The notes beneath the pieces are model-generated. The model was given only the letters and a program-made list of their open reading frames with translations. It searched no databases and was not told where the DNA came from. A stretch of DNA of 61,871 nucleotides from an uncultured Eubacteriales bacterium (GTDB lineage Bacteria; Bacillota; Clostridia; Christensenellales; UBA1242): contig CARXKP010000003.1 in the NCBI GenBank assembly GCA_949096025.1, forward strand, positions 1 to 61,871, read 5' to 3'. Below, piece after piece: positions 1 to 43,002 of this stretch. The number at the start of each line of letters is the position of its first letter. The stretch's first letter is position 1. The translations under genes and the position numbers were made by a program.

Positions 1-1870
1 CTTCAACATTTCCATTATATTTTACATAGTATTTGTTATTTCGCCAGATTGCATAAAGTCTTTGCTCATCATCCTCATTTGATAATGTAAAGTTTGCACC
101 ATTTCCGTGTGTCACCTTTGCTTGTTGCGTTGCTAAATCATAATGATCACTTATATTACTTGTATCTAATATTAATGTTTGTTGCCAGTGCCAACCTACA
201 AAACTATATCCTGTTCGATAATATGTATTTAATGTTAGTGCTGTTGGCTGTCCATAAAAATACTTATTTCCTTCTGTTGTCATCGTTCCTAAACCACCAT
301 TTGGTAAATATACCATATTTGATGACTTTGGACTCCATTGAGCGGTAAGTGTAGGAGAACCATACTTGCCTTTTAAAGAAACTCCATCTGAATGTGTCGA
401 ATTATTTAACCACGAACCACTTGATGATGTTACTTTCCAGCCAGTAAAATTATATCCATATCTATGTGGTTTTGGCAATTCGGTTGTTGATGTTATATTA
501 TAACTTATATTTGATAAAGCATCTCCACCATTAGTCATTAAAGTTATTGTATAGGTATTTATTGTCCAATACGCATAAAGTGTTGTATTATTATTTGCTA
601 TATTCCAACTTCTAGCACTTGTTCCATTTGAATTATAATACTTTGTTCCTGAACCTCCAGTGCTTGAATAATATCCATTAAATGTATAGCCTGTTCTTGA
701 CGGAACTGAAATCGAAGGCATTGACGAATCATATGTTGCTGTCACACTACCATCTCCACCGCTTCCACTTTGCCTATCAAGTGTTACTGTATACTCATTT
801 GCCGTCCAATAAGCATAAAGTGTTTTATCTGAGGCATTATCCCAAGCTCTTGCACTTGTTCCATTTGAATTATAATATTTTGTTCCTGAACCGCCAGTAC
901 TAGAATAATATCCTTGAAAAGTATAACCGGCTCTTGATGGAACTGAGATTGTTGGCATTGACGAATTATAAGTTGCTGTAACTGAGCCATCTCCGCCACT
1001 ACCACTTTGTCTATCAAGTGTTACAGTATATTTTAAAGGCTCCCATACCGCATATAAATTTATTGTTCTTGCAGTGTCACCAGTTGTATCTTTAAAATTA
1101 TCACCACTTGCATAACTAGCATTAGTAGCAGAAGAACTTCTACTCCAACCTTTAAATTTATATCCTGAACGCGTTGGTGTAGAACTAGGAATAGTTACAC
1201 CACCAAGACCAGAATAAAAATTTATACTTGAAGGAGCATTACTCCCTCCATTTGCATTAAAAGCAAGATTATAGTACCATCTATAGATAACATAGCAATT
1301 ACCATACATTGTTTTTTCAGCAGCACCCTTTGGAGGCGAAGATGTCGAAGGGGCATTACTAGCCCATTTATAATAAGTGGTATTACCACTTAATGGAGAG
1401 CCTGCTGCATCAGATGAATCATACACTCCGTGACATCTCCACCAAGAAGGATAATAATTGGTAATATTAATTCTTCCGTGACGACGGACATAATGCAAAC
1501 CGCCATTAGAGTAATGATAATAAAATGTTGAGATGTTATTTAATTTTATTACATTATTCCCACTACGACTTGTACCATTATAGTATAATGTTGCATCAAA
1601 AGGCATACGATCACCATCACCAGTTTTTTCATCCTCATACCAAGAAACATCAAATAAACTACTTCCAACAATTGATGTGGATGTATAATCAGCAATAGAA
1701 CTAGTCCCCTCTCTATAAGCAACTGTTTTTACAATAAAATTAAAGTTAGTGGACGCTTCTGTTTTATCTTTTTTAGAAAAAGGATTGACAAGTAGAATTA
1801 TACCGCCAGTTAGCACAAGCAAGGCAACAATAATAAAAAAACTTTTTGTAATCAAAGAAAACTTTTTCAT
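1..1870 (-). CDS. Cell-surface protein, N-terminal 623 codons only (C-terminus beyond left window edge); signal/anchor helix followed by Listeria-Bacteroides type (Flg_new / InlB B-repeat-like) repeats
   Basis: Absent from the ORF track because it has no stop in the window. Hand translation of the reverse strand starts at ATG 1870-1868, with SD GGAGGGTGAT directly upstream. It gives MKKFSLITKSFFIIVALLVLTGG... and stays open to base 2 (...RLYAIWRNNKYYVKYNGNVE). Repeated modules Y-T-[VI]-T-L-D...G-Y-x-F-x-G-[WY]...LYA-x-W are the Flg_new signature. Confidence 0.8.
   Translation of the reverse strand, partial: MKKFSLITKSFFIIVALLVLTGGIILLVNPFSKKDKTEASTNFNFIVKTVAYREGTSSIADYTSTSIVGSSLFDVSWYEDEKTGDGDRMPFDATLYYNGTSRSGNNVIKLNNISTFYYHYSNGGLHYVRRHGRINITNYYPSWWRCHGVYDSSDAAGSPLSGNTTYYKWASNAPSTSSPPKGAAEKTMYGNCYVIYRWYYNLAFNANGGSNAPSSINFYSGLGGVTIPSSTPTRSGYKFKGWSRSSSATNASYASGDNFKDTTGDTARTINLYAVWEPLKYTVTLDRQSGSGGDGSVTATYNSSMPTISVPSRAGYTFQGYYSSTGGSGTKYYNSNGTSARAWDNASDKTLYAYWTANEYTVTLDRQSGSGGDGSVTATYDSSMPSISVPSRTGYTFNGYYSSTGGSGTKYYNSNGTSARSWNIANNNTTLYAYWTINTYTITLMTNGGDALSNISYNITSTTELPKPHRYGYNFTGWKVTSSSGSWLNNSTHSDGVSLKGKYGSPTLTAQWSPKSSNMVYLPNGGLGTMTTEGNKYFYGQPTALTLNTYYRTGYSFVGWHWQQTLILDTSNISDHYDLATQQAKVTHGNGANFTLSNEDDEQRLYAIWRNNKYYVKYNGNVE
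557..1030 (-). repeat. Two tandem 237-nt (79-codon) coding repeats inside the surface-protein gene
   Basis: The units are 794..1030 and 557..793. They encode YTVTLDRQSGSGGDGSVTATYNSSMPTISVPSRAGYTFQGYYSSTGGSGTKYYNSNGTSARAW... and YTVTLDRQSGSGGDGSVTATYDSSMPSISVPSRTGYTFNGYYSSTGGSGTKYYNSNGTSARSW... The offset between identical landmarks is exactly 237 nt. Confidence 0.65.
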
Positions 1871-1948: not shown

Positions 1949-1978
1949 ATTCTACCCCCCCCCACCAAATTTTGTCAA
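1949..1978 (-). promoter_or_regulatory. Sigma-A type promoter of the left-edge surface-protein gene with a G9 tract in the spacer
   Basis: On the minus strand the sequence reads TTGACA (1978-1973), aaatttggt, GGGGGGGGG (1963-1955), TAGAAT (1954-1949). The spacer is 18 nt. The promoter lies about 80 nt upstream of the ATG at 1870. Confidence 0.6.
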
Positions 1979-2021: not shown

Positions 2022-2048
2022 TACAAAAAAAAAGACGGATTGCGTCTT
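2022..2048 (-). terminator. Rho-independent terminator after recO
   Basis: On the minus strand: AAGACG-caatc-CGTCTT followed by a T8 run. The stem overlaps the recO stop codon. Confidence 0.6.
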
Positions 2049-4101: not shown

Positions 4102-4761
4102 CTAACTTTTATTCTTTAATGAACGCCTATACAGATAATCAAATAATAAAAACAACGCTCCAATAATAGCCCAAACAACTATTATACAAACTCCAGCAGT
4201 TTTATTAATAATTACCCTACCTTCGGAATCAATAATACTCCAATCGTTCTGCTTAATTCCTAGATAAGTAATAAGTAAAACAGATAATACTGCCGAACAA
4301 ACACCAAATATCCATTTAAAAATTTTTAACACATTTCGATTCCACAATAATTTATAGTGCACATTTTCAGGCATTGATTTTTTCATTTTATTTTCAGTCA
4401 ATAATTTATGCCCCAACTTTTGCTTCTGCAAAGCTACCTGTTTCGATTTATATGCACAAGCGAGAGGATCTTTTCCTTCCATTATACTTGCATAAAAACT
4501 CTCGACAAAATCAATATCTGATTGCTTACAAAATTCTGATTCTATAGATACATCGTGAGCAAGTTGATTACGCATCCAACGCACGTGTTTTAATTCCTTA
4601 TATACAATATCCCAATCATTTATTACACTTCGTTCTACATAAGGCGTATTCTCCATATCTTTAATATAGGAGGATACTCCTTCATTTGACGAATAAATCT
4701 CTCTACAGAGCTTATCAAGTTTTTTATATTGTTCTTGAAATTCAATATTTTTTTCCTGCAT
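4102..4761 (-). CDS. Hypothetical membrane-anchored protein (219 aa): helical N-terminal domain with HEPN-like RNxxAH motif and two C-terminal TM helices
   Basis: Track ORF 4102..4926 was trimmed because its first 55 codons read through the tRNA. ATG at 4761 is preceded by GGGAGAAG. MQEKNIEFQEQYKKLDKLCREIY...KELKHVRWMRNQLAHDVS... The C-terminus has hydrophobic segments WIFGVCSAVLSVLLITYLGI and GVCIIVVWAIIGALFLLFDYL. Confidence 0.65.
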   Translation of the reverse strand: MQEKNIEFQEQYKKLDKLCREIYSSNEGVSSYIKDMENTPYVERSVINDWDIVYKELKHVRWMRNQLAHDVSIESEFCKQSDIDFVESFYASIMEGKDPLACAYKSKQVALQKQKLGHKLLTENKMKKSMPENVHYKLLWNRNVLKIFKWIFGVCSAVLSVLLITYLGIKQNDWSIIDSEGRVIINKTAGVCIIVVWAIIGALFLLFDYLYRRSLKNKS

Positions 4762-4829
4762 TAAATCTTCTCCCAATATAAAATAAAAATACCCCATAAA
4801 ACAAAAAATGTTTTCCTGAGGTATATCCT

Positions 4830-4905
4830 TGGTGGAAGTTATAGGGCTCGAACCTATGACCCTCTGCTTGTAAGGCAGATGCTCTCCCAGCTGAGCTAAA
4901 CTTCC
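4830..4905 (-). tRNA. tRNA-Val (anticodon TAC), CCA encoded
   Basis: The reverse strand reads GGAAGTTTAGCTCAGCTGGGAGAGCATCTGCCTTACAAGCAGAGGGTCATAGGTTCGAGCCCTATAACTTCCACCA. It folds as a clean cloverleaf with acceptor GGAAGTT/AACTTCC, anticodon stem TCTGC/GCAGA, loop CTTACAA and T-loop TTCGAGC. Confidence 0.95.
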
Positions 4906-4916
4906 ATTGCTCTTTA

Positions 4917-4945
4917 ATAATATCAAATTTATTTTTTTTTGTCAA
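4917..4945 (-). promoter_or_regulatory. Sigma-A type promoter of tRNA-Val
   Basis: On the minus strand: TTGACA (4945-4940), 17-nt spacer, TATTAT (4922-4917). The tRNA 5' end lies about 12 nt downstream. Confidence 0.55.
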
Positions 4946-5163
4946 CACTTTTTTAAAACTTTTTTTAATTTACCCGAATTTTATTGATAATGTAAAATTA
5001 AAAATCTTTCCTATACAAAAAATAACTTAAAATATAAAAATATTATCATAATTGTTTCCAAAGTGATAAAAATAATTATAAAATGTATATAAATGTTAAG
5101 TATTTGTTTATATATTTTTATTTTATTTGCTAAAATATAATTAATCATTTATAAGGAGGACTA

Positions 5164-6262: not shown

Positions 6263-8812
6263 TTAAGGTTTCTTGTATGTGCTTCCACCTGAATTTTCTG
6301 TAGCTCTCTTAATTTCCTTAGTATCTGAAACCAATTGTTTAAGTAACGCATTAGTTTCTTTCTGAAGATTTTGTTCAGCTTGAGAGTTGGCAACATCAGT
6401 AGCGTGATGTTCTCTACGCATTGCATCACCTTCAGACTTACGATCAAGAGAAGTGCCTTTCATAGTCATAGCAGGTCCTAATGAATCTTTTATGCCACCT
6501 AGAACCTTATCAAGTCCAAACGCACCGCCCATTTCTTTCATAGACTTAACGAATGCATCAGACATAGATTTACCTGCTTTCTTAGCATCAAATGTAACAT
6601 CAAGTGCTTTACCAGTTAATTTAACACCTTTCCATAAACCATTACTAATTGCAGAGATTTTATCTTTTGCTGAATCTTTTATTGACCTATTTTCCTTAGA
6701 ATACTCACCATTAGATCCTTTCTTATAGTGTAATTCACCTTTTTCCATTTTTTCTTTAACATTTTCAGCACGTTTATAAACTTTAGCAATTTCTTCTTTG
6801 CCACTATCACTATCATAGTTGACATTTTTCTTGCCTGTAATTCTTTCATACTCTGTTCTATTTCTAGTTTGTTCTTGCTCTAGGCTATCCATCATACTAT
6901 GTCCAGATCCAGCAGCAACCTTTTTGCCAGAAACATCTCTTTCAGAAAGTTCTTTTTCAATTGCTTTTTTGACGTCATCTTCACTACCGCCTGCACTTCT
7001 TACTTTTAATGCCGCAGTAGCAGCAGCCTTTTCAGCTCCCTCAAGACCTTTAATTCCTTCGGTAGACTTAGAGGCTTCCAACAATGAATTTACCTTATCT
7101 GCTTTTACATTGACATTTCCTGCTTTTTCAGCAATATCAAGAGCCTTTCTATCACCTTCTGCCCGAGCTCGTTTAGCGATTGCTTTACCACCTGCTTTAA
7201 TAGCACCACCTGTAAGTCTAGCCGCACCAACAGCCACTCTAGCAGTTCCGCCGGCCATAGCTGTCATAGTAGAGAAGCCTTTTTTAACAGTGGATTGAAC
7301 TTCACTCTTAAGACCATTACCGATAGAGTTAGCATCAGCACCACCAACAAATCCAGAAACAATAGCAATAAAGTCTTTCATCATAAGGATGCCGACAATT
7401 AGGATAATCATATTAACTATAGAGTTAATCATACCGAAAATTGTACCTGGACCAAACCATTGAATCGTCTGAACATAAGGTAGTATTAACATTATAATAT
7501 TCATACCGAGTATCGCACCGTAAGCCATAAGAACTTGTTGCATAAATTGTGTGCCCCAACTCTTAAATGCTTTAAAGTTATCTAGGGGTCCGAGTGAAAT
7601 AAGTGGAGGATAAATAATGAACAATGCAGCACCTTTTATAAGTCTAGACATAAGACCAAGGATAACTGACAGCATTACACCAACCATTGTAACACCACCA
7701 CCGAAGGCTACTATGAATTGGAATTGCCATAAGTCATAATGTAACCATACTGCAGTTAGGTTGTATTTTGAGAAAGAACTCATCGTGTTAATAGCCCCAG
7801 TAAAATCTGTCCCTCTTATATATCTAACATTTGGATACCAACTTTTAACTTCATTAATAGATTTAGAAACCTTTAATTTTATATTATTCATAAAAGCAAA
7901 ATCAATTTGATCTGCTATATAATTTTTTCTTTCTTCATCACTTTTACAATTACGGAAATCATTACAATCGTTACTTCCAAAAATTTGACTGCTTTGTGCA
8001 TTCCCTATTGTAATATTCTCTGTACGCACTCGATTTGCAGAAAATGCTGCCGCTTTGAACAACATACCACCCATTGTAGAGGTTGTTGTTGGAGAATAAG
8101 CTCCAAAGAAGTCATAATATGTATAGCAAAGCTTGCTAGTTGGGTCATCCTTAACAAGATAAGTTCCTTCAAATTTATCAGTAACAACAGTATTTCCATA
8201 CATTGCTTTAACTTTTTCCGCGTCAGTTCCAGCAGTAATTTGGTCAAGAATATTAAGTATAAAACTTGAAAGGTTAAGACCAATAACAACCATAACAGGC
8301 ATAATGAAGTAAGTAAGAATACCTTTAATAGCGGCATAAATATATTTCCAAGGATTAGTAGTTTGATAATCTTCGTTATAGTGAGATTTAATCATAGCTA
8401 TCATTGTAGCAAGTACTAACAATATTAACGCAAAGATTGATAACGATATGAAAACGGTATGTAATGCTCTATAAACAGAAGCTCTATCACCAATACCTAA
8501 TATTCCATAAATAAATTCTGAAAGAGGATCTCTACCAAAAATCTGAGTAAACTTTGTTCCTCCACCGCTAGCGGAACCACTTATCTGAACTCCATCAACA
8601 ATTGTTCCACCTTCAGAAGGTCCTGCCGATTCTAATCCAGACACCCAGTAGGAATCTAAACCGGCAAGTTTTCTCATTAGACATTGAAGAGCATCAATTC
8701 CACTTGCGAATGCCGCAAAGAAGAAATAAATAATTCGTGGAATATTATCAAGGATGGATAAGAACCAATCTTTGATACCATCAAACAATCCCAATAACAT
8801 CGATGTATTCAT
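6263..8812 (-). CDS. Large polytopic membrane protein (849 aa) with about 330-aa Gly/Ala/Lys/Glu-rich cytoplasmic tail; function unknown (TcpH/TrbL/VirB6-like architecture only)
   Basis: SD is AAAGGAGGGGATTT-ATG. There are many hydrophobic helices, e.g. IIYFFFAAFASGI, SLSIFALILLVLATMIAMI, GILTYFIMPVMVVIGLNL, FIVAFGGGVTMVGVMLSVILGL, AYGAILGMNIIMLILPYV and MIILIVGILMM. The low-complexity tail follows from about residue 515. The gene is monocistronic, with its own TGgTATAAT promoter and terminator. Confidence 0.8.
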   Translation of the reverse strand: MNTSMLLGLFDGIKDWFLSILDNIPRIIYFFFAAFASGIDALQCLMRKLAGLDSYWVSGLESAGPSEGGTIVDGVQISGSASGGGTKFTQIFGRDPLSEFIYGILGIGDRASVYRALHTVFISLSIFALILLVLATMIAMIKSHYNEDYQTTNPWKYIYAAIKGILTYFIMPVMVVIGLNLSSFILNILDQITAGTDAEKVKAMYGNTVVTDKFEGTYLVKDDPTSKLCYTYYDFFGAYSPTTTSTMGGMLFKAAAFSANRVRTENITIGNAQSSQIFGSNDCNDFRNCKSDEERKNYIADQIDFAFMNNIKLKVSKSINEVKSWYPNVRYIRGTDFTGAINTMSSFSKYNLTAVWLHYDLWQFQFIVAFGGGVTMVGVMLSVILGLMSRLIKGAALFIIYPPLISLGPLDNFKAFKSWGTQFMQQVLMAYGAILGMNIIMLILPYVQTIQWFGPGTIFGMINSIVNMIILIVGILMMKDFIAIVSGFVGGADANSIGNGLKSEVQSTVKKGFSTMTAMAGGTARVAVGAARLTGGAIKAGGKAIAKRARAEGDRKALDIAEKAGNVNVKADKVNSLLEASKSTEGIKGLEGAEKAAATAALKVRSAGGSEDDVKKAIEKELSERDVSGKKVAAGSGHSMMDSLEQEQTRNRTEYERITGKKNVNYDSDSGKEEIAKVYKRAENVKEKMEKGELHYKKGSNGEYSKENRSIKDSAKDKISAISNGLWKGVKLTGKALDVTFDAKKAGKSMSDAFVKSMKEMGGAFGLDKVLGGIKDSLGPAMTMKGTSLDRKSEGDAMRREHHATDVANSQAEQNLQKETNALLKQLVSDTKEIKRATENSGGSTYKKP

Positions 8813-30057: not shown

Positions 30058-33000
30058 TTAATCCCTTTTATTGTAATCACTGCCAAGAGTAAAAGGTTCA
30101 TTATCAAGTATAAGTCCGCCTATCCAAGTAAGTCCATTTGGAAGAGGTTTTCCATTATACATTGTCCAATTTGAAAAATCCGCTCCTCCTTCATAATAAT
30201 ACTTATTTCCACCTGCAATATAAATAGTACTTATAACCTTGCTTACAGAATTATATAGAGAAATATCGGAATTACATTCAGCATAACAATCAGTGATAGT
30301 TGTAGTACTACCAGAACCTAATAAAATTTTACCATTTGTTATCGAACCGATAAAAGCACTATTTTTTATGCTTGATGCTAAACTGCTATACCCCATAATT
30401 CCTGCAATCAACGTTCCGTCAGCGCCATTATTTCCAACAATATTACATTGAGATATACAATCTGTTATAGTTGATGCAACATCGTCTGCTCCACCAATTA
30501 TGCCTCCAACATTTTCTCTGCCTGTGATGTTGCCGTGATTATAACATTTATTTACTGTAACACCATCACCTTGTCCAATCATTCCACACGATTGGTCGCC
30601 TATTACATTTACATAACTTACGCAGTTTTCAATAAGTCCAGTACTTGCAAATCCTACAAGTCCACCTATACGTTTGTATCCTGTCACGCTTCCAGTTGAA
30701 AGATTGACATTTTTTATAGTCGCTCCAACGGTATAACCAAATAAACCTACATTATTAAATAACTGCCTTCCACTTGCATTTATCTGAGAGTAAAATTTTA
30801 TTCCTGAGATTGAGTACCTTTGTCCGTCATAAACTCCTCTAAATGCCTTTTGTCGATCTCCTTCTGGGTTTGTTTCTATAGTATTTCCTCCGATTGGTAA
30901 CCAGTAATGTGCCGATAAATTTATATGCGCGGTTTGTTTATAAAAAGCATTTGTATAGTGTCCATTTACATTTTCTTCTTGAACCTTTAATGAAAGGAAT
31001 GCTAAATCTCCAGCAGTTGCAATTATGTATGGATTCGACTCAGTTCCTTCTCCAGCTAAACTGATTGAAGCATAGTCAGCCCAAGTTGTCTGCCATTGAG
31101 CTGTTAATATAATATCTTCAGCATATCTCGATGACGGAACCGTTCCTCCATCTTTATATGTATAACCATTCTTATTATCTGTCCAATACATAAATATCTT
31201 GCCAGGTCTTATAAATGTACAGGAAGGAAGTGTAACAGAATTTGGAAAAGTATATTCAATTTCACTCATCGAACCGCCATTTCCACCATTATTGTCAAAG
31301 TTAATCTTATACTTGTTAGCTTCCCACTTAGCATACAAGATTGTAACAGTTGTTTCCTTCCAAACTTGAGCACCTTTTGCTATATTCTCCCTTGCTTCTT
31401 TGCCGTTATAATACTGTTTCCCATTACCATTTGTTTGAGTGAAATATCCTCTAAATGTATAGCCTCTTCTTGTTGGTGGTGTAATATTAGGAGGCATTGC
31501 ATCATAAGCTATGTCTACACTCGTTGTTCCTGCAGTTGTAGCAGATTGATTATCAAGTGTAACCTTGTAAGTATTTGGTGTCCAAATAGCAGAAAATACT
31601 TTCTTAGAACTATCATCTCCGAGATATGAAACTGTCATACTTAACTTTCCGTTTGTTGCTACATACGTTGTTCCATTATGTTCCCAACCAACTAATGTAT
31701 AACCTGTTCTTGTTGCAACAGGGAATTCAAATATCGAACCCACTTCAATACCGTTTTGTTGACCTAAGGGACCTTCGCCACCATTATAGTTAAATTCAAA
31801 ATCATATTTCAATCCTGCAAGCATATATAAATTTAAATGTAATGCTGGACGAACGGCAGCTGAAGATGACACTGTTAATGAAGAAACATAATCTCCTTTT
31901 ACCGACAAATTACGAGTAGAGATAAAATCTGTATTGCTTGCAGAACGTATCATTGAACTATTATACAAAATATTATCAGTATTAGAGGTTCCAACTTTAG
32001 CAGATATGCTACTTGTCGAACCATTAAAGTTTGCTCTTTGGTTATTGTTTAAACCCCATAAACCAGCATTTCCATCATATCCCACCTCATAACGACTAGG
32101 AAGCCAAAGTTTATCATATTTCCAAATATCATTATTCGATTTATGTGCATAGTTATATAAACTTGAATAAAAGCCGTCGTCACTTACACCTGTAGACCAG
32201 TTTTCATTTGAACAATTATAATTAGTACCAGTACCTTTTGAATTTTGTCCGCTTTCTTGCCAAGACACTTGTTCTGGAGTGACTATATATTTAGTTACAT
32301 TACCAGCAACAGAATCATTTGTAAAAATTGCAAATGGGCTTGATATTTTATTCCCTCCCGAAGTAGCATTTGTTCCATCACTTGTATAGTATCCATTTTG
32401 ACTATTTAATGTTACATATCGCACATAACTTTTTCCATACATATTTGAAGGACCACTTAATGTCGCATCTGAACTTAACCAATTTGCTGACCAATCTGAA
32501 TATAATCCTCCATTGTAGAATCCGTGATATTGACCCAAACTATCATTTCTTCCTAACCAAGCCTCTTGATAATTATTATCAAGCCAAAGAGTAAGTATTG
32601 GTTGACCTAGTTTATCTGTTGAAAGATACATCACCTGCCAATCAAGTCCACCAAATCTTACAATAATGTCTTGACCGCTTGATTTTAATGTTGTACCAGT
32701 TCTCATATCGGCTGAAGTTCTTATACTTGTTGCTTGAGAAACAAGCGTTGTTAAATTTGTTGTTGATGACGAACTATTATCAGTCACCATTTGTAAAAGT
32801 CTATTTGCATTCGTTGTCTTTATTTCACTTCCTGTCCATATTTCATCTACTTTAGCAGCATTTTTGTTGACAAGATTAATGGTATTCGCCGCCGCTTCTT
32901 TTAAATTTAAGTGCAATGCGGGACGAACGGCAGCTGAAGATGACACTGTTAATGAAGAAACATAATCTCCTTTTACCGACAAATTACGAGTAGAGATAAA

Positions 33001-34080
33001 ATCTGTATTGCTTGCAGAACGTATCATTGAACTATTATACAAAATATTATCAGTATTAGAGGTTCCAACTTTAGCAGATATGCTACTTGTCGAACCATTA
33101 AAGTTTGCTCTTTGGTTATTGTTTAAACCCCATAAACCAGCATTTCCATCATATCCCACCTCATAACGACTAGGAAGCCAAAGTTTATCATATTTCCAAA
33201 TATCATTATTCGATTTATGTGCATAGTTATATAAACTTGAATAAAAGCCGTCGTCACTTACACCTGTAGACCAGTTTTCATTTGAACAATTATAATTAGT
33301 ACCAGTACCTTTTGAATTTTGTCCGCTTTCTTGCCAAGACACTTGTTCTGGAGTGACTATATATTGGGTCACATTTTCTGCGACTCTACTCATAGTAAAT
33401 TTTGCGAAAGGACTTGATGAAGTTTGAGATGCACTTGCAGAAGAAGTTCCTGTTGAATAATTAAACCACATTGAATTTGCATTATTCAAAGTAACCATCT
33501 TTACATAACTTCTTCCATACATATTGGAAGGATATAAACCTGACACACTAGTGCTTGACCAATTTGCAGAAAAATCTGAATATAATCCTCCATTGTAGAA
33601 TCCGTGATATTGACCCAAACTATCATTTCTTCCCGCCCAAGCTTTTTGATAGTTGTTTGTAAGCCATAAGGTTAAAATTGGATTGCCTGACTTATCTGTT
33701 GAAAGGTACACAACTTCCCAGTCAAGCCCAGCAAATCTGACAACTATATCTTTGCCACTTGTCTTTCCTGTCGTTCCGCTACGCATCGCCTCTGCCGTTC
33801 GCTTGCTTGATGCTAGTGAGTTTATCATTGACATATTTGTGCTTGAAACCGAACTATTATTTGCAACCATTCGCAAGAGTTGATTAAAGTTTAAGCCATC
33901 AAAAGCACTGCCATTCCAGATTTCGTCCACTTTTACAAAGCTTAATGTATCGATATTTGTTATGGCATTAGTGGAAGTTCTTTTTATTAGACCAAACATA
34001 TCAAGGCCAAGCAATAAACTTGACATAGCAAAAAGGATGCAACAGATTATTACAGATATTTTTCTTATTAATTTCATCAT
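30058..34080 (-). CDS. Large secreted/surface protein (1340 aa): signal peptide, two tandem about 358-aa modules ending in a DUF6273-like ...VRPALHLNL segment, three Listeria-Bacteroides (Flg_new) repeats, C-terminal GLUG-motif repeats
   Basis: SD is GAGGGAGGTGA-ATG. The signal sequence is MMKLIRKISVIICCILFAMSSLLLG. Flg_new modules include TRTGYTLVGW, RRGYTFRGYF and YKINFDNNGGNG. GLUG-like segments include GLFGYTVGATIKN, IGGLVGFASTGLIENC and VGGIIGG. Domain names are from motif memory. Confidence 0.85.
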   Translation of the reverse strand: MMKLIRKISVIICCILFAMSSLLLGLDMFGLIKRTSTNAITNIDTLSFVKVDEIWNGSAFDGLNFNQLLRMVANNSSVSSTNMSMINSLASSKRTAEAMRSGTTGKTSGKDIVVRFAGLDWEVVYLSTDKSGNPILTLWLTNNYQKAWAGRNDSLGQYHGFYNGGLYSDFSANWSSTSVSGLYPSNMYGRSYVKMVTLNNANSMWFNYSTGTSSASASQTSSSPFAKFTMSRVAENVTQYIVTPEQVSWQESGQNSKGTGTNYNCSNENWSTGVSDDGFYSSLYNYAHKSNNDIWKYDKLWLPSRYEVGYDGNAGLWGLNNNQRANFNGSTSSISAKVGTSNTDNILYNSSMIRSASNTDFISTRNLSVKGDYVSSLTVSSSAAVRPALHLNLKEAAANTINLVNKNAAKVDEIWTGSEIKTTNANRLLQMVTDNSSSSTTNLTTLVSQATSIRTSADMRTGTTLKSSGQDIIVRFGGLDWQVMYLSTDKLGQPILTLWLDNNYQEAWLGRNDSLGQYHGFYNGGLYSDWSANWLSSDATLSGPSNMYGKSYVRYVTLNSQNGYYTSDGTNATSGGNKISSPFAIFTNDSVAGNVTKYIVTPEQVSWQESGQNSKGTGTNYNCSNENWSTGVSDDGFYSSLYNYAHKSNNDIWKYDKLWLPSRYEVGYDGNAGLWGLNNNQRANFNGSTSSISAKVGTSNTDNILYNSSMIRSASNTDFISTRNLSVKGDYVSSLTVSSSAAVRPALHLNLYMLAGLKYDFEFNYNGGEGPLGQQNGIEVGSIFEFPVATRTGYTLVGWEHNGTTYVATNGKLSMTVSYLGDDSSKKVFSAIWTPNTYKVTLDNQSATTAGTTSVDIAYDAMPPNITPPTRRGYTFRGYFTQTNGNGKQYYNGKEARENIAKGAQVWKETTVTILYAKWEANKYKINFDNNGGNGGSMSEIEYTFPNSVTLPSCTFIRPGKIFMYWTDNKNGYTYKDGGTVPSSRYAEDIILTAQWQTTWADYASISLAGEGTESNPYIIATAGDLAFLSLKVQEENVNGHYTNAFYKQTAHINLSAHYWLPIGGNTIETNPEGDRQKAFRGVYDGQRYSISGIKFYSQINASGRQLFNNVGLFGYTVGATIKNVNLSTGSVTGYKRIGGLVGFASTGLIENCVSYVNVIGDQSCGMIGQGDGVTVNKCYNHGNITGRENVGGIIGGADDVASTITDCISQCNIVGNNGADGTLIAGIMGYSSLASSIKNSAFIGSITNGKILLGSGSTTTITDCYAECNSDISLYNSVSKVISTIYIAGGNKYYYEGGADFSNWTMYNGKPLPNGLTWIGGLILDNEPFTLGSDYNKRD
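31847..32291 (-). repeat. Copy 1 of a 445-bp perfect direct repeat (coding)
   Basis: Checked line by line and found identical to 32921..33365. The offset is 1074 nt, which is 358 codons. It encodes YIVTPEQVSWQESGQNSKGTGTNYNCSNENW...SSAAVRPA. Confidence 0.85.
32921..33365 (-). repeat. Copy 2 of the 445-bp perfect direct repeat (coding)
   Basis: See 31847..32291. The flanks diverge sharply at both ends. Confidence 0.85.
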
Positions 34081-34303
34081 TCACCTCCCTCAAGCCTTAC
34101 GCTTGGCGACTATCGTATATTAATTTACATACTCTAAATACTTAGCATTCCCCAAACCTTACACTTAGCGAGCAAGTAAATGTTGCACGACTGTCGTTAA
34201 GTTCGCTATAAACGCTATAAATTAGTTTGTTTATTTTAGGTTTTTTTATTAAAATATATAGCCTGTCACCTCCGCCTAAATTACACTATATATTTATACC
34301 TTA

Positions 34304-34333
34304 ATTTTACCCCCCCCCACGACTTTTTGTCAA
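34304..34333 (-). promoter_or_regulatory. Sigma-A type promoter of the 1340-aa surface-protein gene with a G9 tract in the spacer
   Basis: On the minus strand: TTGACA (34333-34328), aaaagtcgt, GGGGGGGGG (34318-34310), TAAAAT (34309-34304). The spacer is 18 nt. Confidence 0.6.
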
Positions 34334-34387
34334 ATATTTACAATAAATAATTAATTATTTAATAAAAAAACATACTTTTATAAAAAA

Positions 34388-34407
34388 TAAACGCATATTT
34401 GCGTTTA
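34388..34407 (-). terminator. Terminator after kdgK
   Basis: TAAACGCA-tat-TGCGTTTA overlaps the kdgK stop and is followed on the minus strand by TTTTTTAT. Confidence 0.55.
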
Positions 34408-35436
34408 TCTTTGTATCCTCCCCGAAGTATCACCGCCCATAAGAGCAAAAACTTCATCTTCATTTACGAGGTTATAATCTCCAGTAATGGTATGTTTTAA
34501 TGCACTTGCTGCGATAGCAAATTCAAGTGCTTTTTGTTTATCATTTGGATACTTTAAGAATGAATGTATCATCGCTCCGCAAAAGGAGTCACCTCCTCCG
34601 ACCCTATCTACAATAGGATTAATATCATATTCCTTAGTAAGCAAAATTTCATTTTTATCAGCATCGTACATAGATGCCCTAAGACCATTGTGAGAAGCAC
34701 TATAAGATGTTCTTGTAGTCGAGAAAATATATTTAAAATCATATTCTTTCGCGATTTGCTTTAACACCATTTTTTCTCTTTCAAGAGGAGTTTTCCCTTT
34801 AAATTGACTTTCATCAATTTTAAAACCTAGACTTTGGACTGCGGTATTTTCATTTCCGAAAAACACATCAACATATTGCATAAGAGGCTTTAATACCTTA
34901 ATCGCTTTTTCTTCTGACCAAAGTTTTTTTCTATAATTAATTTCACAAGATACAAGAACATTGTGTTTTTTAGCAGAAATAAGCGCCTGACGCATTACCT
35001 CTGCTGCTTTATCACTAATTGCTGTTGTTATTCCTATCCAATGAAACCAATCTGTGCCTTCAAAAATTTTATCAAAATCAAAGTCCTCGACATCTGCTTC
35101 TGCCATAGCAGAGCCTGCTCTATCATAAATAACTTTACTTGCACGCATTGATGCACCAATTTCAAGATAATATATTCCAAGTCTATCTCCACCGCGAGCA
35201 ACAAAATCGGTATTCACTCCATATTTTCTAAGTTCATTTATAGCACATTGTCCTATTTCGTGTGCTGGTACTTTTGATACATAAACTGCCTCATCACCAT
35301 AATTGGCAAGCGAAATTGCAACATTTGCTTCACTTCCTCCATAAAGAGAATCAAAACCACTTGCCTGAACAAATCTTTGATTGCCTGAAGTTGACAATCT
35401 CAACATAATTTCGCCCATTGTTACAATTTTTGCCAT
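34405..35436 (-). CDS. kdgK: 2-dehydro-3-deoxygluconokinase (PfkB family)
   Basis: MAKIVTMGEIMLRLS..., GGSEANVA, C-terminal GGGDSFCGA. Confidence 0.85.
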   Translation of the reverse strand: MAKIVTMGEIMLRLSTSGNQRFVQASGFDSLYGGSEANVAISLANYGDEAVYVSKVPAHEIGQCAINELRKYGVNTDFVARGGDRLGIYYLEIGASMRASKVIYDRAGSAMAEADVEDFDFDKIFEGTDWFHWIGITTAISDKAAEVMRQALISAKKHNVLVSCEINYRKKLWSEEKAIKVLKPLMQYVDVFFGNENTAVQSLGFKIDESQFKGKTPLEREKMVLKQIAKEYDFKYIFSTTRTSYSASHNGLRASMYDADKNEILLTKEYDINPIVDRVGGGDSFCGAMIHSFLKYPNDKQKALEFAIAASALKHTITGDYNLVNEDEVFALMGGDTSGRIQR

Positions 35437-40932: not shown

Positions 40933-42948
40933 TTAATCGTCATAAGCATTCTTTGGCTTCATAACAATTTGATTTCTTCTATCTATATCATAGAAGATTT
41001 CTTCAATATTAAGTTGTTTTGAAAGAGCCATTGGATCTGGTTTCTTAAGTTTTTCCATACATTTTGCTTGGAAGAATGGTGTCATAACATCCATCATAAT
41101 CGCCTTTCTGAAAATCTTTGCAATAATTGTCCAACGTTCAAGTTGACGAAGTTTTTGCTTATCAAGAAGTGGCTTACGAGTTCTTTGAGTAGAAGTTGTA
41201 ATATTTTCACCGCCAGTTGCAATATCTCTATTAGTTTGACGAGATCTTGAAATTTCCTCGTGGAATACTGTAGTTTCACCGCAGGCTTCTGAGAAAGCTT
41301 GAATTGTTGATGGGTCTTCTGAACCAAGGAATACTTCCATCTGGAAGTTACCACGAATATTTTGTGCTTCATCTTGACCATATTTAATATCAAGTTGCTT
41401 ATAAGATTGTAAGATTATTTCAAAGAATATTTTTCTTGAACGAGAAACTGTAACCATTGTACCAAAGTTTGGAACGGCAGGCATATTACCAAATTCATCA
41501 AGAATAAAGTAAACTGGGCGTGGCAATGTTCCTTTACCATTCTTGTTTGCAACATCAACGAGTACCTTATAAAGCTGACTGATACAAAGTACACCAAGTG
41601 GGTGTCTTTCAGTTTTGTGGTCAGGTATTCTGATAAAGAAGGCTGTTGGCACTTCTGGAATCTTTGTAAAGTCAATATCTGTACCACTTGTAAGGAATAA
41701 GATACCTTCATCACCAAGGGTTTTACCAATAGAAGATGATAGAGTTGAAAGGAATGATCTTTGAGTTACACCACTGGCAAGACATACACCACTCATAAGT
41801 TGATATACGTTACCTCTTACCTTATCTCTTCCGTCAGCATAGGTTGTAAGAGTTTTAAGTGCGCTTTCTCTATCGCCGGCTGGGTCACGTCTCATACAAA
41901 TTTTATAAAGGTTAAAGAAATTAAATTTATCAATAGTCATTCCAAGACGAGGATCTCTTGAGTCCTCAAGCATAGCATACATAATACCAGTAATAAAGTC
42001 ACGACAACCATTTGACCAAGTAGGGTCTTTACTATTTGGGTCATCAGGAATAAGAGAAAGACCTATGTTTTTAATATCACTTTTTGCTTCATCTTCAAGT
42101 TGAATCTTTCTTGATTCAAGTTCTTGTTGAAGTAGTTCTTTTGTTGGGAATGCCTTTCCTTCAAAGCCATACCAAACATTGCCATATTCAGCACCTTGCA
42201 AAACATCTGCACCAAACCTCTTGTGTTTTGCGTCTTCTGGCTTAACATCTGTATATTTTTTAACTTCCTTAGCAAGTTCCCCTGCTCTTTGATAAGTTCT
42301 ATACGCAATTTCCATTGGGTTCCACATAGAAGAAGCATAAGGATCATTTAAGTTAAGCACTATACATTTATATCCTTCCTTTTCAAGAACAGCAGCATTA
42401 TCTGCATAAAGTTCTCCCTTAGGGTCGGTCATAACCATACTAGGTTTTTGTCCTGAGTGTGCCAAAATTCTAATAGTTGGGTTAGCAAGAAGTTGTGTTT
42501 TACCAGTACCAGTAGTACCCAAAACAAGTGCGTGTGTTTCAGGCTTCATATTAACTTCAAAATGTCCCATATTTTGTTTCATTCTAAAAACAAATCCTGT
42601 TTTTTGAAGAGAAGGGAGATTATTCCAAGTTGAATAAATAAGTTCTTTATCCCTCTTCATTTCTTCAGGTGTGATAAACTTAGAGTCAAAGTTAACTTCA
42701 GTTTCATCACCTTCAGCAGTTGTACCCACATTGCTTGCCGAACTTATTTTTCTACGACTGAAAAGTCCCATTCCAAGACCAGTCAAAGCACCAACAATGG
42801 TACATACAATAGCATAAACACCAGTAGCAGCTTCAGAGGCTTCACTTCCAGTCGCGAAAAGACCAACTGCAAAACCGATGCCGTAACCAACTAAGCCTAG
42901 TATCACCATAAAAATTAAGCCTAGTTTAATTCTTCTCCCCATTCCCAT
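40933..42948 (-). CDS. VirD4/TraG-family type IV coupling ATPase-like protein (671 aa)
   Basis: Track ORF trimmed to the ATG at 42948, preceded by AAGGAGATAATT. Two N-terminal TM helices (LGLIFMVILGLVGYGIGFAVGLF, VYAIVCTIVGALTGLGMGLF), Walker A VLGTTGTGKTQ and Walker B VYFILDEFGNM. Confidence 0.75.
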   Translation of the reverse strand: MGMGRRIKLGLIFMVILGLVGYGIGFAVGLFATGSEASEAATGVYAIVCTIVGALTGLGMGLFSRRKISSASNVGTTAEGDETEVNFDSKFITPEEMKRDKELIYSTWNNLPSLQKTGFVFRMKQNMGHFEVNMKPETHALVLGTTGTGKTQLLANPTIRILAHSGQKPSMVMTDPKGELYADNAAVLEKEGYKCIVLNLNDPYASSMWNPMEIAYRTYQRAGELAKEVKKYTDVKPEDAKHKRFGADVLQGAEYGNVWYGFEGKAFPTKELLQQELESRKIQLEDEAKSDIKNIGLSLIPDDPNSKDPTWSNGCRDFITGIMYAMLEDSRDPRLGMTIDKFNFFNLYKICMRRDPAGDRESALKTLTTYADGRDKVRGNVYQLMSGVCLASGVTQRSFLSTLSSSIGKTLGDEGILFLTSGTDIDFTKIPEVPTAFFIRIPDHKTERHPLGVLCISQLYKVLVDVANKNGKGTLPRPVYFILDEFGNMPAVPNFGTMVTVSRSRKIFFEIILQSYKQLDIKYGQDEAQNIRGNFQMEVFLGSEDPSTIQAFSEACGETTVFHEEISRSRQTNRDIATGGENITTSTQRTRKPLLDKQKLRQLERWTIIAKIFRKAIMMDVMTPFFQAKCMEKLKKPDPMALSKQLNIEEIFYDIDRRNQIVMKPKNAYDD

Positions 42949-43002
42949 AATTATCTCCTTTATTTTTTTGTAGGGCAATAAAAGACGCCCTTTTACAAAT
43001 TA

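Follow-up and report, generated by a model that had tools for sequence, protein, structure and literature searches.

Length-variable poly-G tracts in two putative surface-protein promoters of an uncultured gut Eubacteriales bacterium: a candidate slipped-strand switch

Two large genes of an uncultured Eubacteriales bacterium, predicted to encode surface proteins, are each preceded by a promoter-like site in which a run of nine G residues directly abuts the -10 hexamer. The length of this run differs between assembled contigs that share the same flanking DNA, and the same arrangement recurs in front of surface-protein genes in other species. We consider it probable that the two sites, here called promoters A and B, are slipped-strand spacer switches or rheostats, in which a hypermutable G tract would tune the expression of the two surface proteins.

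Promoter anatomy and downstream genes

Both sites lie within what we call the window, the whole 61.9-kb stretch of DNA that was analysed, and they share a common layout of TTGACA, nine nucleotides, G9 and TA(A/G)AAT with a spacer of 18 nt (Table 1). Each scores 11 out of 12 against the sigma-70 consensus, and no second strong promoter-like site is present on the coding strand of either intergenic region. The initial annotation had described site A as TTGACA, an 18-nt spacer with a 9-nt G run and TAAAAT on the minus strand, and the sequence reads as claimed. It had also placed this site about 220 nt upstream of the ATG of the largest adhesin-like gene; the measured distance is 223 nt and no ORF in the window is longer.

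Table 1. Coordinates of promoter elements, genes and neighbouring features in the window.
Feature	Position	Strand	Remark
Promoter A	34333..34304	-	reads TTGACA-AAAAGTCGT-GGGGGGGGG-TAAAAT
-35 hexamer TTGACA, promoter A	34328..34333	-	
Non-G half-spacer AAAAGTCGT, promoter A	34319..34327	-	9 nt
G9 homopolymer abutting -10, promoter A	34310..34318	-	length-polymorphic, 24 contigs
-10 hexamer TAAAAT, promoter A	34304..34309	-	
Leader, promoter A to ATG	34081..34303	-	about 217-223 nt; -10 end to ATG 223 nt
1340-aa ORF behind promoter A	30058-34080	-	longest ORF in the window
Terminator-like hairpin ending the upstream pfkB-family kinase gene	34387..34408	-	locus A
Promoter B	1978..1949	-	reads TTGACA-AAATTTGGT-GGGGGGGGG-TAGAAT
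-35 hexamer TTGACA, promoter B	1973..1978	-	
G9 homopolymer, promoter B	1955..1963	-	length-polymorphic, 11 contigs
-10 hexamer TAGAAT, promoter B	1949..1954	-	
5' part of the protein B gene, runs off the window	1..1870	-	at least 623 aa
Terminator-like hairpin after recO, upstream of promoter B	2032..2048	-	

The two tracts are conspicuous in DNA of 32.3% G+C. A run-length census of the window returned a single G/C run of 6 nt and two of 9 nt, with nothing at 7 or 8 nt; both 9-nt runs are C on the plus strand and G on the minus strand. The earlier count by eye, which had given just two 9-nt runs in 61.9 kb and assigned both to the same promoter position, is thus exact: no other G/C run exceeds 6 nt, and the second tract repeats the layout of nine nucleotides followed by G9. 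Four overlapping G8 words were observed where dinucleotide shuffles of the window predict 0.13, and the full 30-nt pattern TTGACA-N9-G9-TANAAT occurs twice against a shuffle expectation of 0.00; a chance origin of the G9 promoters is therefore excluded. A poly-G artefact of two-colour sequencing was likewise rejected, the tract being internal, 9 nt long and found at the same place in contigs from many projects. Across the whole window the plus strand carries 11837 C versus 8142 G and the long ORFs lie nearly all on the minus strand, which places the G tracts on the G-rich, presumably leading, strand and on the coding strand.

Each site follows a terminator-like hairpin that closes a housekeeping gene, a pfkB-family kinase gene at locus A and recO at locus B; at locus A the hairpin sets promoter A apart as the beginning of a separate transcription unit. 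The 1340-aa protein encoded behind it has a signal peptide or anchor, Flg_new repeats, two tandem DUF6273-like repeats of about 400 aa each and a Glug-like C-terminal region. Protein B, which measures 1056-1070 aa in contigs that contain the complete gene, begins with an N-terminal membrane anchor or signal and also carries Flg_new (Listeria-Bacteroides) repeats. Both genes are accordingly predicted, from their domain content, to encode surface-exposed products of the kind that would meet the host, and the adhesin-like character first assigned to the 1340-aa protein agrees with its signal or anchor and repeat domains. The neighbouring genes include those for SpoIIR, SipL, YpeB, a SleB-like hydrolase and Spo0A_C, which mark the organism as a spore former, as had been supposed.

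The leader of the 1340-aa gene was considered as a regulatory element in its own right. A search of the whole window against Rfam at the gathering threshold detected one tRNA and no riboswitch or leader RNA family, and a permissive search (E up to 10) with the locus A leader gave matches at chance level. With a leader that matches no known RNA family, a riboswitch- or leader-controlled adhesin gene, for example one under a c-di-GMP riboswitch, was rejected as an explanation. A comparison of the leaders of five G-tract loci found no element common to them. Within the locus A leader, the segment TCGCCAAGCGTAAGGCTTGAGGG... stands directly before the start codon and has a diverged duplicate, TCGCTAAGTGTAAGGTTTGGGG..., about 60 nt upstream (window 34100-34190, minus strand); a third RBS-like segment, GGCGGAGGTGA, lies near the 5' end of the leader.

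Tract-length variation within the species and at homologous loci

Tract lengths were compared among contigs chosen because their neighbouring proteins are identical to those of the window or are cluster variants of these, all lengths being those of consensus assemblies with one length per contig. Locus A was recovered in 26 contigs including the window, and 24 of them read through the tract: 22 carry G9, L003 has G8 and L173 has G10. Over 650 nt of flank, L003 and L173 have a haplotype that also occurs among G9 contigs, and a haplotype bearing a T>C SNP in the non-G half-spacer has kept G9. Two Logan contigs of locus A are irregular at the tract: L163 (about 2605-2635) reads G9 followed by AAAAT, the first T of the -10 being lost, and the 3' end of L166 falls inside the tract, which is at most a hint of heterogeneity.

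At locus B, eight of 11 contigs have G9, two have G7 (L004 and L010, of the same lineage) and one has G10 (L006). These contigs form five lineages separated by 0-25 SNPs in 2.7 kb, whose tracts are G9, G9, G7, G9 and G10, and the G7 lineage is only 4 SNPs away from the window. A T8 and a T9 run near locus B have each changed once, along lineage lines. Both the contig with G7 at locus B and the contig with G10 at locus B have G9 at locus A, so the two loci vary independently. Length variants of 8, 9 and 10 G in related genomes had been named beforehand as the test of the slippage idea; they were found as G8, G9 and G10 at locus A and as G7, G9 and G10 at locus B. The anticipated shifting of the spacer among 17, 18 and 19 nt is present in the assemblies in full, together with spacers of 16 nt.

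The cleanest case of length change comes from a homologous gene in mouse-gut MAGs (the P0011 locus), whose protein is 39% identical over part of the protein. Its promoter reads TTGACA-TTTTTC-G9/G10-TAAAAT, and a leader of 673 nt that holds no ORF separates it from the gene. The G9 contigs (L147 and L148) and the G10 contigs (L150 and L151) show 0 SNPs over 6.0-6.4 kb, and a single-G indel in the tract is their sole difference, while that stretch also contains one A9 run and eight A7/T7 runs, none of which varies. Indels on shared or identical flanks next to stable A/T runs identify the tract as the fastest-changing site of these loci. Another contig of the P0011 locus, L146, contains a perfect 11-bp hairpin at 794-822 (CCCCGAAAAAT / ATTTTTCGGGG) that encloses the -35 hexamer and whose 3' arm runs into the G tract; a similar inverted pair, C9...G10, surrounds the -35 in L137.

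Five homologous gene lineages were compared. A G tract occupies this position of the promoter in window A, L145 (G8, 17-nt spacer) and P0011, and none was found at the P0003 and P0026 loci, indicating that the tract is common in the gene family and not universal. A homologue of protein B in another mouse-gut species (L032; 32% identity, E = 4e-54) is likewise preceded by a promoter with its own G9, joined to a different half-spacer, ATAAATC. Judging from these homologues, the G run persists while the surrounding spacer sequence diverges. L032 harbours a second G9 tract at about 4496-4504 (plus-strand coordinates), roughly 1.9 kb from the first, in front of a small ORF and a tyrosine-recombinase-like gene that adjoins a tRNA gene 96% identical to window 4829-4971.

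Overall, the comparative length variation supports the slipped-strand interpretation put forward in the initial annotation; the function of the tract is our inference.

Recurrence across genomes and alternative readings of the tract

We searched one genome per species for the pattern TTGACA-N7-12-G8-TANAAT and obtained at least 120 matching species genomes. Among the matches listed, about 85 are Bacillota as classed by record title, mostly gut MAGs of Clostridia, Lachnospiraceae, Christensenellaceae, Oscillospiraceae and Bacilli but also streptococci; Treponema and other spirochaetes account for nine matches and Saccharibacteria for three. Tract lengths among these matches are G8 in 22, G9 in 54, G10 in 29 and G11-14 in 17. 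The first downstream ORF is signal-peptide-like in 62 of 89 cases among the matches listed, versus 102 of 394 controls, for which we took the remaining ORFs of 200 aa or more at these loci (Fisher p = 2e-14). The commonest downstream Pfam families, again among the matches listed, are BspA-type LRR_5 (7), ABC_tran (5), DUF6273 (4), Flg_new (2) and YSIRK (2). Five of the 89 downstream ORFs thus encode ABC-transporter ATPases (L014, L026, L029, L058 and L116) and not secreted proteins, which sits poorly with a pure spacer-length device.

A scan of metagenomes, in which only the -35, the half-spacer and G7 were fixed, returned mostly unrelated loci. In 7 of the 10 non-orthologous matches a -10-like hexamer follows directly after the tract, and every identifiable downstream ORF at those loci is signal-peptide or lipoprotein-like, in DNA of 32-58% G+C. 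The same scan yielded just one orthologue, L133, which has G9.

A strict rule of strand and position governs these tracts: without exception, the non-template strand carries the G residues and the run is directly adjacent to the -10. Within the bacterial loci that were fetched (L013-L132, 835 kb) there are 12 further G/C runs of at least 8 nt, about 7 of which lie between -35-like and -10-like hexamers with G on the non-template strand; none of the 12 occupies that position in the opposite orientation. Viral contigs, on which a C-tract control was run, gave 24 matches to TTGACA-N-G8-TANAAT in 12 contigs and 0 to the C8 version. Such strictness suggests that more than spacer length matters, as a pure spacer-length device does not predict it. 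Plausibly, one G of the run would fall at -14 and make a partial extended -10 contact, which might keep the promoter usable while the -35 shifts register.

It is quite possible, although we put it forward as tentative, that a poly-G of about 8-11 nt abutting the -10 on the non-template strand defines a widespread and unrecognised class of contingency promoters, in which the G residues would also have a sequence-specific role. Within commensal gut Bacillota such a class would cover surface and secreted proteins of spore-forming Clostridia, Lachnospiraceae and Christensenellales-like lineages and streptococcal YSIRK proteins, and would take in Treponema, Saccharibacteria and some phages as well.

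The main rival to a switch is a fixed sequence element: the G run would be a constant part of one class of promoters and be held at about 9 nt by stabilising selection, with the length variants as unselected mutational noise. The run could then act through the G at -14, through rigidity of this part of the spacer, or as a binding site for a regulator or for a factor from phage or host. Several observations favour such an element. G9 is the modal length among the matches listed whatever the length of the non-G half-spacer (6-10 nt), over total spacers of 15 to 20 nt, and so looks like a preferred tract length and not a preferred total spacing; G9 also prevails across haplotypes at locus A. The absence of C-tract counterparts in viral contigs and the strict adjacency to the -10 point the same way, as do 12 such promoters that stand before ordinary phage genes on one phage contig. 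Counted against the switch is also that any G9 run would be polymorphic whatever its function. However, variants of +/-1 and -2 nt appear at consensus level in independent populations with identical flanks, and the distance between the consensus -35 and the -10 necessarily changes with them. The association with secreted and surface proteins is a hallmark of contingency loci and is unexpected for a generic promoter element. Moreover, the optimal total spacing of 17 nt is depleted, not enriched, among the 122 promoters in the matches listed (13 observed versus 24.3 +/- 4.2 expected), and 19 nt is enriched (35 versus 23.3 +/- 3.7), in a post hoc test that takes the two spacer halves as independent and includes loci that are not all independent of one another. 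This distribution is compatible with promoters that are weakly active or off most of the time. On balance we regard the fixed element as unlikely to be the whole explanation of the tract, and the two readings are compatible with each other. Given the strong dominance of G9, the tracts at A and B may work as rheostats resting in a low state rather than as clean ON/OFF switches.

The phage contig just mentioned is a 208-kb viral contig (IMGVR_UViG_3300015214_000001; L181, L190, L192 and L193). Its 12 near-identical G8/G9 promoters have the form TTGACA-AATAWTC-G8/9-TA(G/A)AAT with spacers of 15-16 nt, also written TTGACAAATAWTC-G8/9-TAGAAT, and precede small non-secreted proteins; there the G run looks like part of a phage promoter consensus.

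That the length differences are homopolymer sequencing or assembly errors around a tract of constant length is very improbable. Homopolymers are error-prone, and the two irregular Logan contigs, one ending inside the tract and one with an odd -10 deletion, would suit such an account. The contigs, however, are short-read assemblies (with SPAdes/MEGAHIT-style names) from many projects, and a 2-nt difference such as G7 versus G9 is atypical of consensus error. The A/T runs of 7-9 nt in these contigs either keep their length or change by lineage, and the same variant recurs within a lineage (G7 in L004 and L010, G10 in L150 and L151), which makes error unlikely.

We give as little credence to the possibility that promoter A sits on an invertible segment of the cwpV type and that its G tract is incidental. 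A 17-nt inverted repeat with 16 of 17 positions complementary does flank it (34237-34253 / 34358-34374, with 104 nt between the arms); only three repeats of this quality exist in the window and none arose in 300 Markov shuffles of the intergenic region. The divergent haplotype L168 has a different 19-nt repeat at the same place (2568-2586 / 2676-2694). Against inversion, the arms are pure A/T of low complexity (T7/A7) in an AT-rich spacer, and no recombinase gene was found nearby. Promoter A has one orientation in 26 of 26 contigs and locus B lacks a flanking repeat, so inversion is unlikely.

Proposed mechanism and relation to known switches

Promoters of the sigma-70 type work best with a spacer of 17 +/- 1 nt. 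From their sequences, sites A and B are probably functional promoters of the housekeeping-sigma (sigma-A/sigma-70) type, whose spacers would consist of nine ordinary bases plus the G tract. In the slipped-strand mechanism that we propose, replication slippage would gain or lose G residues, the consensus -35 would thereby shift relative to the -10, and promoter use by RNA polymerase would change heritably and reversibly. G8, with a spacer of 17 nt, is expected to be the strongest allele, and the common G9, at 18 nt, a weaker one. Cells in each population would consequently differ in the amounts of the two large Flg_new-repeat surface proteins, loci A and B varying independently. That tract-length changes alter transcription is likely by analogy with the known spacer-length dependence of sigma-70-type promoters, and the mutability of the tract is presumably what selection maintains. 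This spacer-length reading draws on the 17 +/- 1 nt optimum and on the precedents of tp0126 and porA.

A close relative is found in Treponema pallidum, where the tp0126 promoter has a poly-G between the -35 and the -10 and is transcribed best at a total spacing of 17 nt (PMC7864442). The poly-G promoters of this species (tp0126, tprE/G/J and tprL) have G9 as the majority length, with minor variants of 7-11 within isolates, and the poly-G promoter spacer of Neisseria porA behaves like that of tp0126 (PMC7864442). Like these treponemal promoters, sites A and B combine a poly-G of about 7-11 nt with a gene for a surface or outer-membrane protein. Unlike the spirochaete pathogen, the host here is a Gram-positive, spore-forming gut commensal, and the target proteins are unrelated. 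In T. pallidum both the effect on transcription and the heterogeneity within strains have been measured, whereas the variation described here is known from consensus sequences. Treponema MAGs are themselves among the promoter-pattern matches listed.

Other promoters are set by repeat length in a comparable manner. In N. meningitidis, a homopolymer fixes the strength of a surface-protein promoter in steps, through the poly-G in the spacer of porA and the poly-C at the -35 of opc (summarised in PMC7864442). Sites A and B share with them a homopolymer in or beside the -35/-10 spacer of a surface-protein gene; they differ in that the proteobacterial pathogen uses G or C tracts and here we see only non-template G abutting the -10. 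Repeat-length switches also operate in the promoters of Bordetella pertussis fim2/fim3 (poly-C), Mycoplasma hyorhinis vlp (poly-A) and Haemophilus influenzae hifA/B (TA repeats). There, too, the length of a repeat between or near promoter elements matters and the genes encode fimbriae or surface lipoproteins, but the repeat unit or base, the dependence on an activator (BvgA for fim) and the phyla are different.

Among spore-forming Clostridium-like organisms, Clostridioides difficile varies the phase of cwpV, flgB and cmrRST by recombinase-driven site-specific inversion (PMC11868660). The likeness to the present case is phase variation of surface structures in such an organism; the difference is that the variable element here is a homopolymer, with no inversion in 26 contigs. 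Homopolymer switches in coding regions are represented by the poly-A of swrA in Bacillus subtilis, itself an endospore former. Further examples are the poly-A of Listeria inlA (PMC2831843) and the poly-C of mga in Streptococcus pyogenes (PMC11868660). All three resemble promoters A and B in undergoing slipped-strand length changes in Gram-positive bacteria, yet they act through ORF frameshifts, whereas the tract here is in a promoter spacer and would act, if at all, on transcription initiation. To our knowledge, the switches described in Clostridia are DNA inversions and the homopolymer switches described in Bacillota are coding-region frameshifts.

Repeat-mediated phase variation is textbook biology for mucosal pathogens. 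According to a 2025 review, genomes with many repeat-mediated loci seem to be restricted to pathogens, perhaps through database bias (PMC11868660). A full-text literature search, with most subscription journals outside its coverage, found no promoter-spacer homopolymer switching in Clostridia or Lachnospiraceae, in keeping with the earlier statement that the mechanism was not known to have been described in endospore-forming Firmicutes. The class of mechanism is thus well known, and its occurrence in commensal, spore-forming gut Clostridia with Flg_new and DUF6273 targets appears to be new. The cross-taxon pattern with its strand and position rule is the more novel lead.

If the poly-G promoters do form a contingency class, multi-locus repeat-mediated phase variation would extend from pathogens to dominant commensal clades. 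The surface variability of gut commensals bears on IgA targeting, phage receptors and adhesion. If tract length does govern transcription, this variability would have a simple, genome-readable mutational source, and the expression state could be read from homopolymer lengths in metagenomic data. The strand and position rule could then also tell us something about how RNA polymerase recognises the -10-proximal part of the spacer.

Two further features of the window concern its other genes. An 849-aa ORF at 6263-8812 has no Pfam match and a middle part that looks membrane-spanning; its protein is strongly divergent between otherwise near-identical strains, and when L004-L009 are aligned the differences appear as blocks of substitutions and indels. 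A gene for a TraG/VirD4-type coupling protein of type IV secretion (40933-42978) lies amid sporulation and housekeeping genes, in the same arrangement in all strains fetched.
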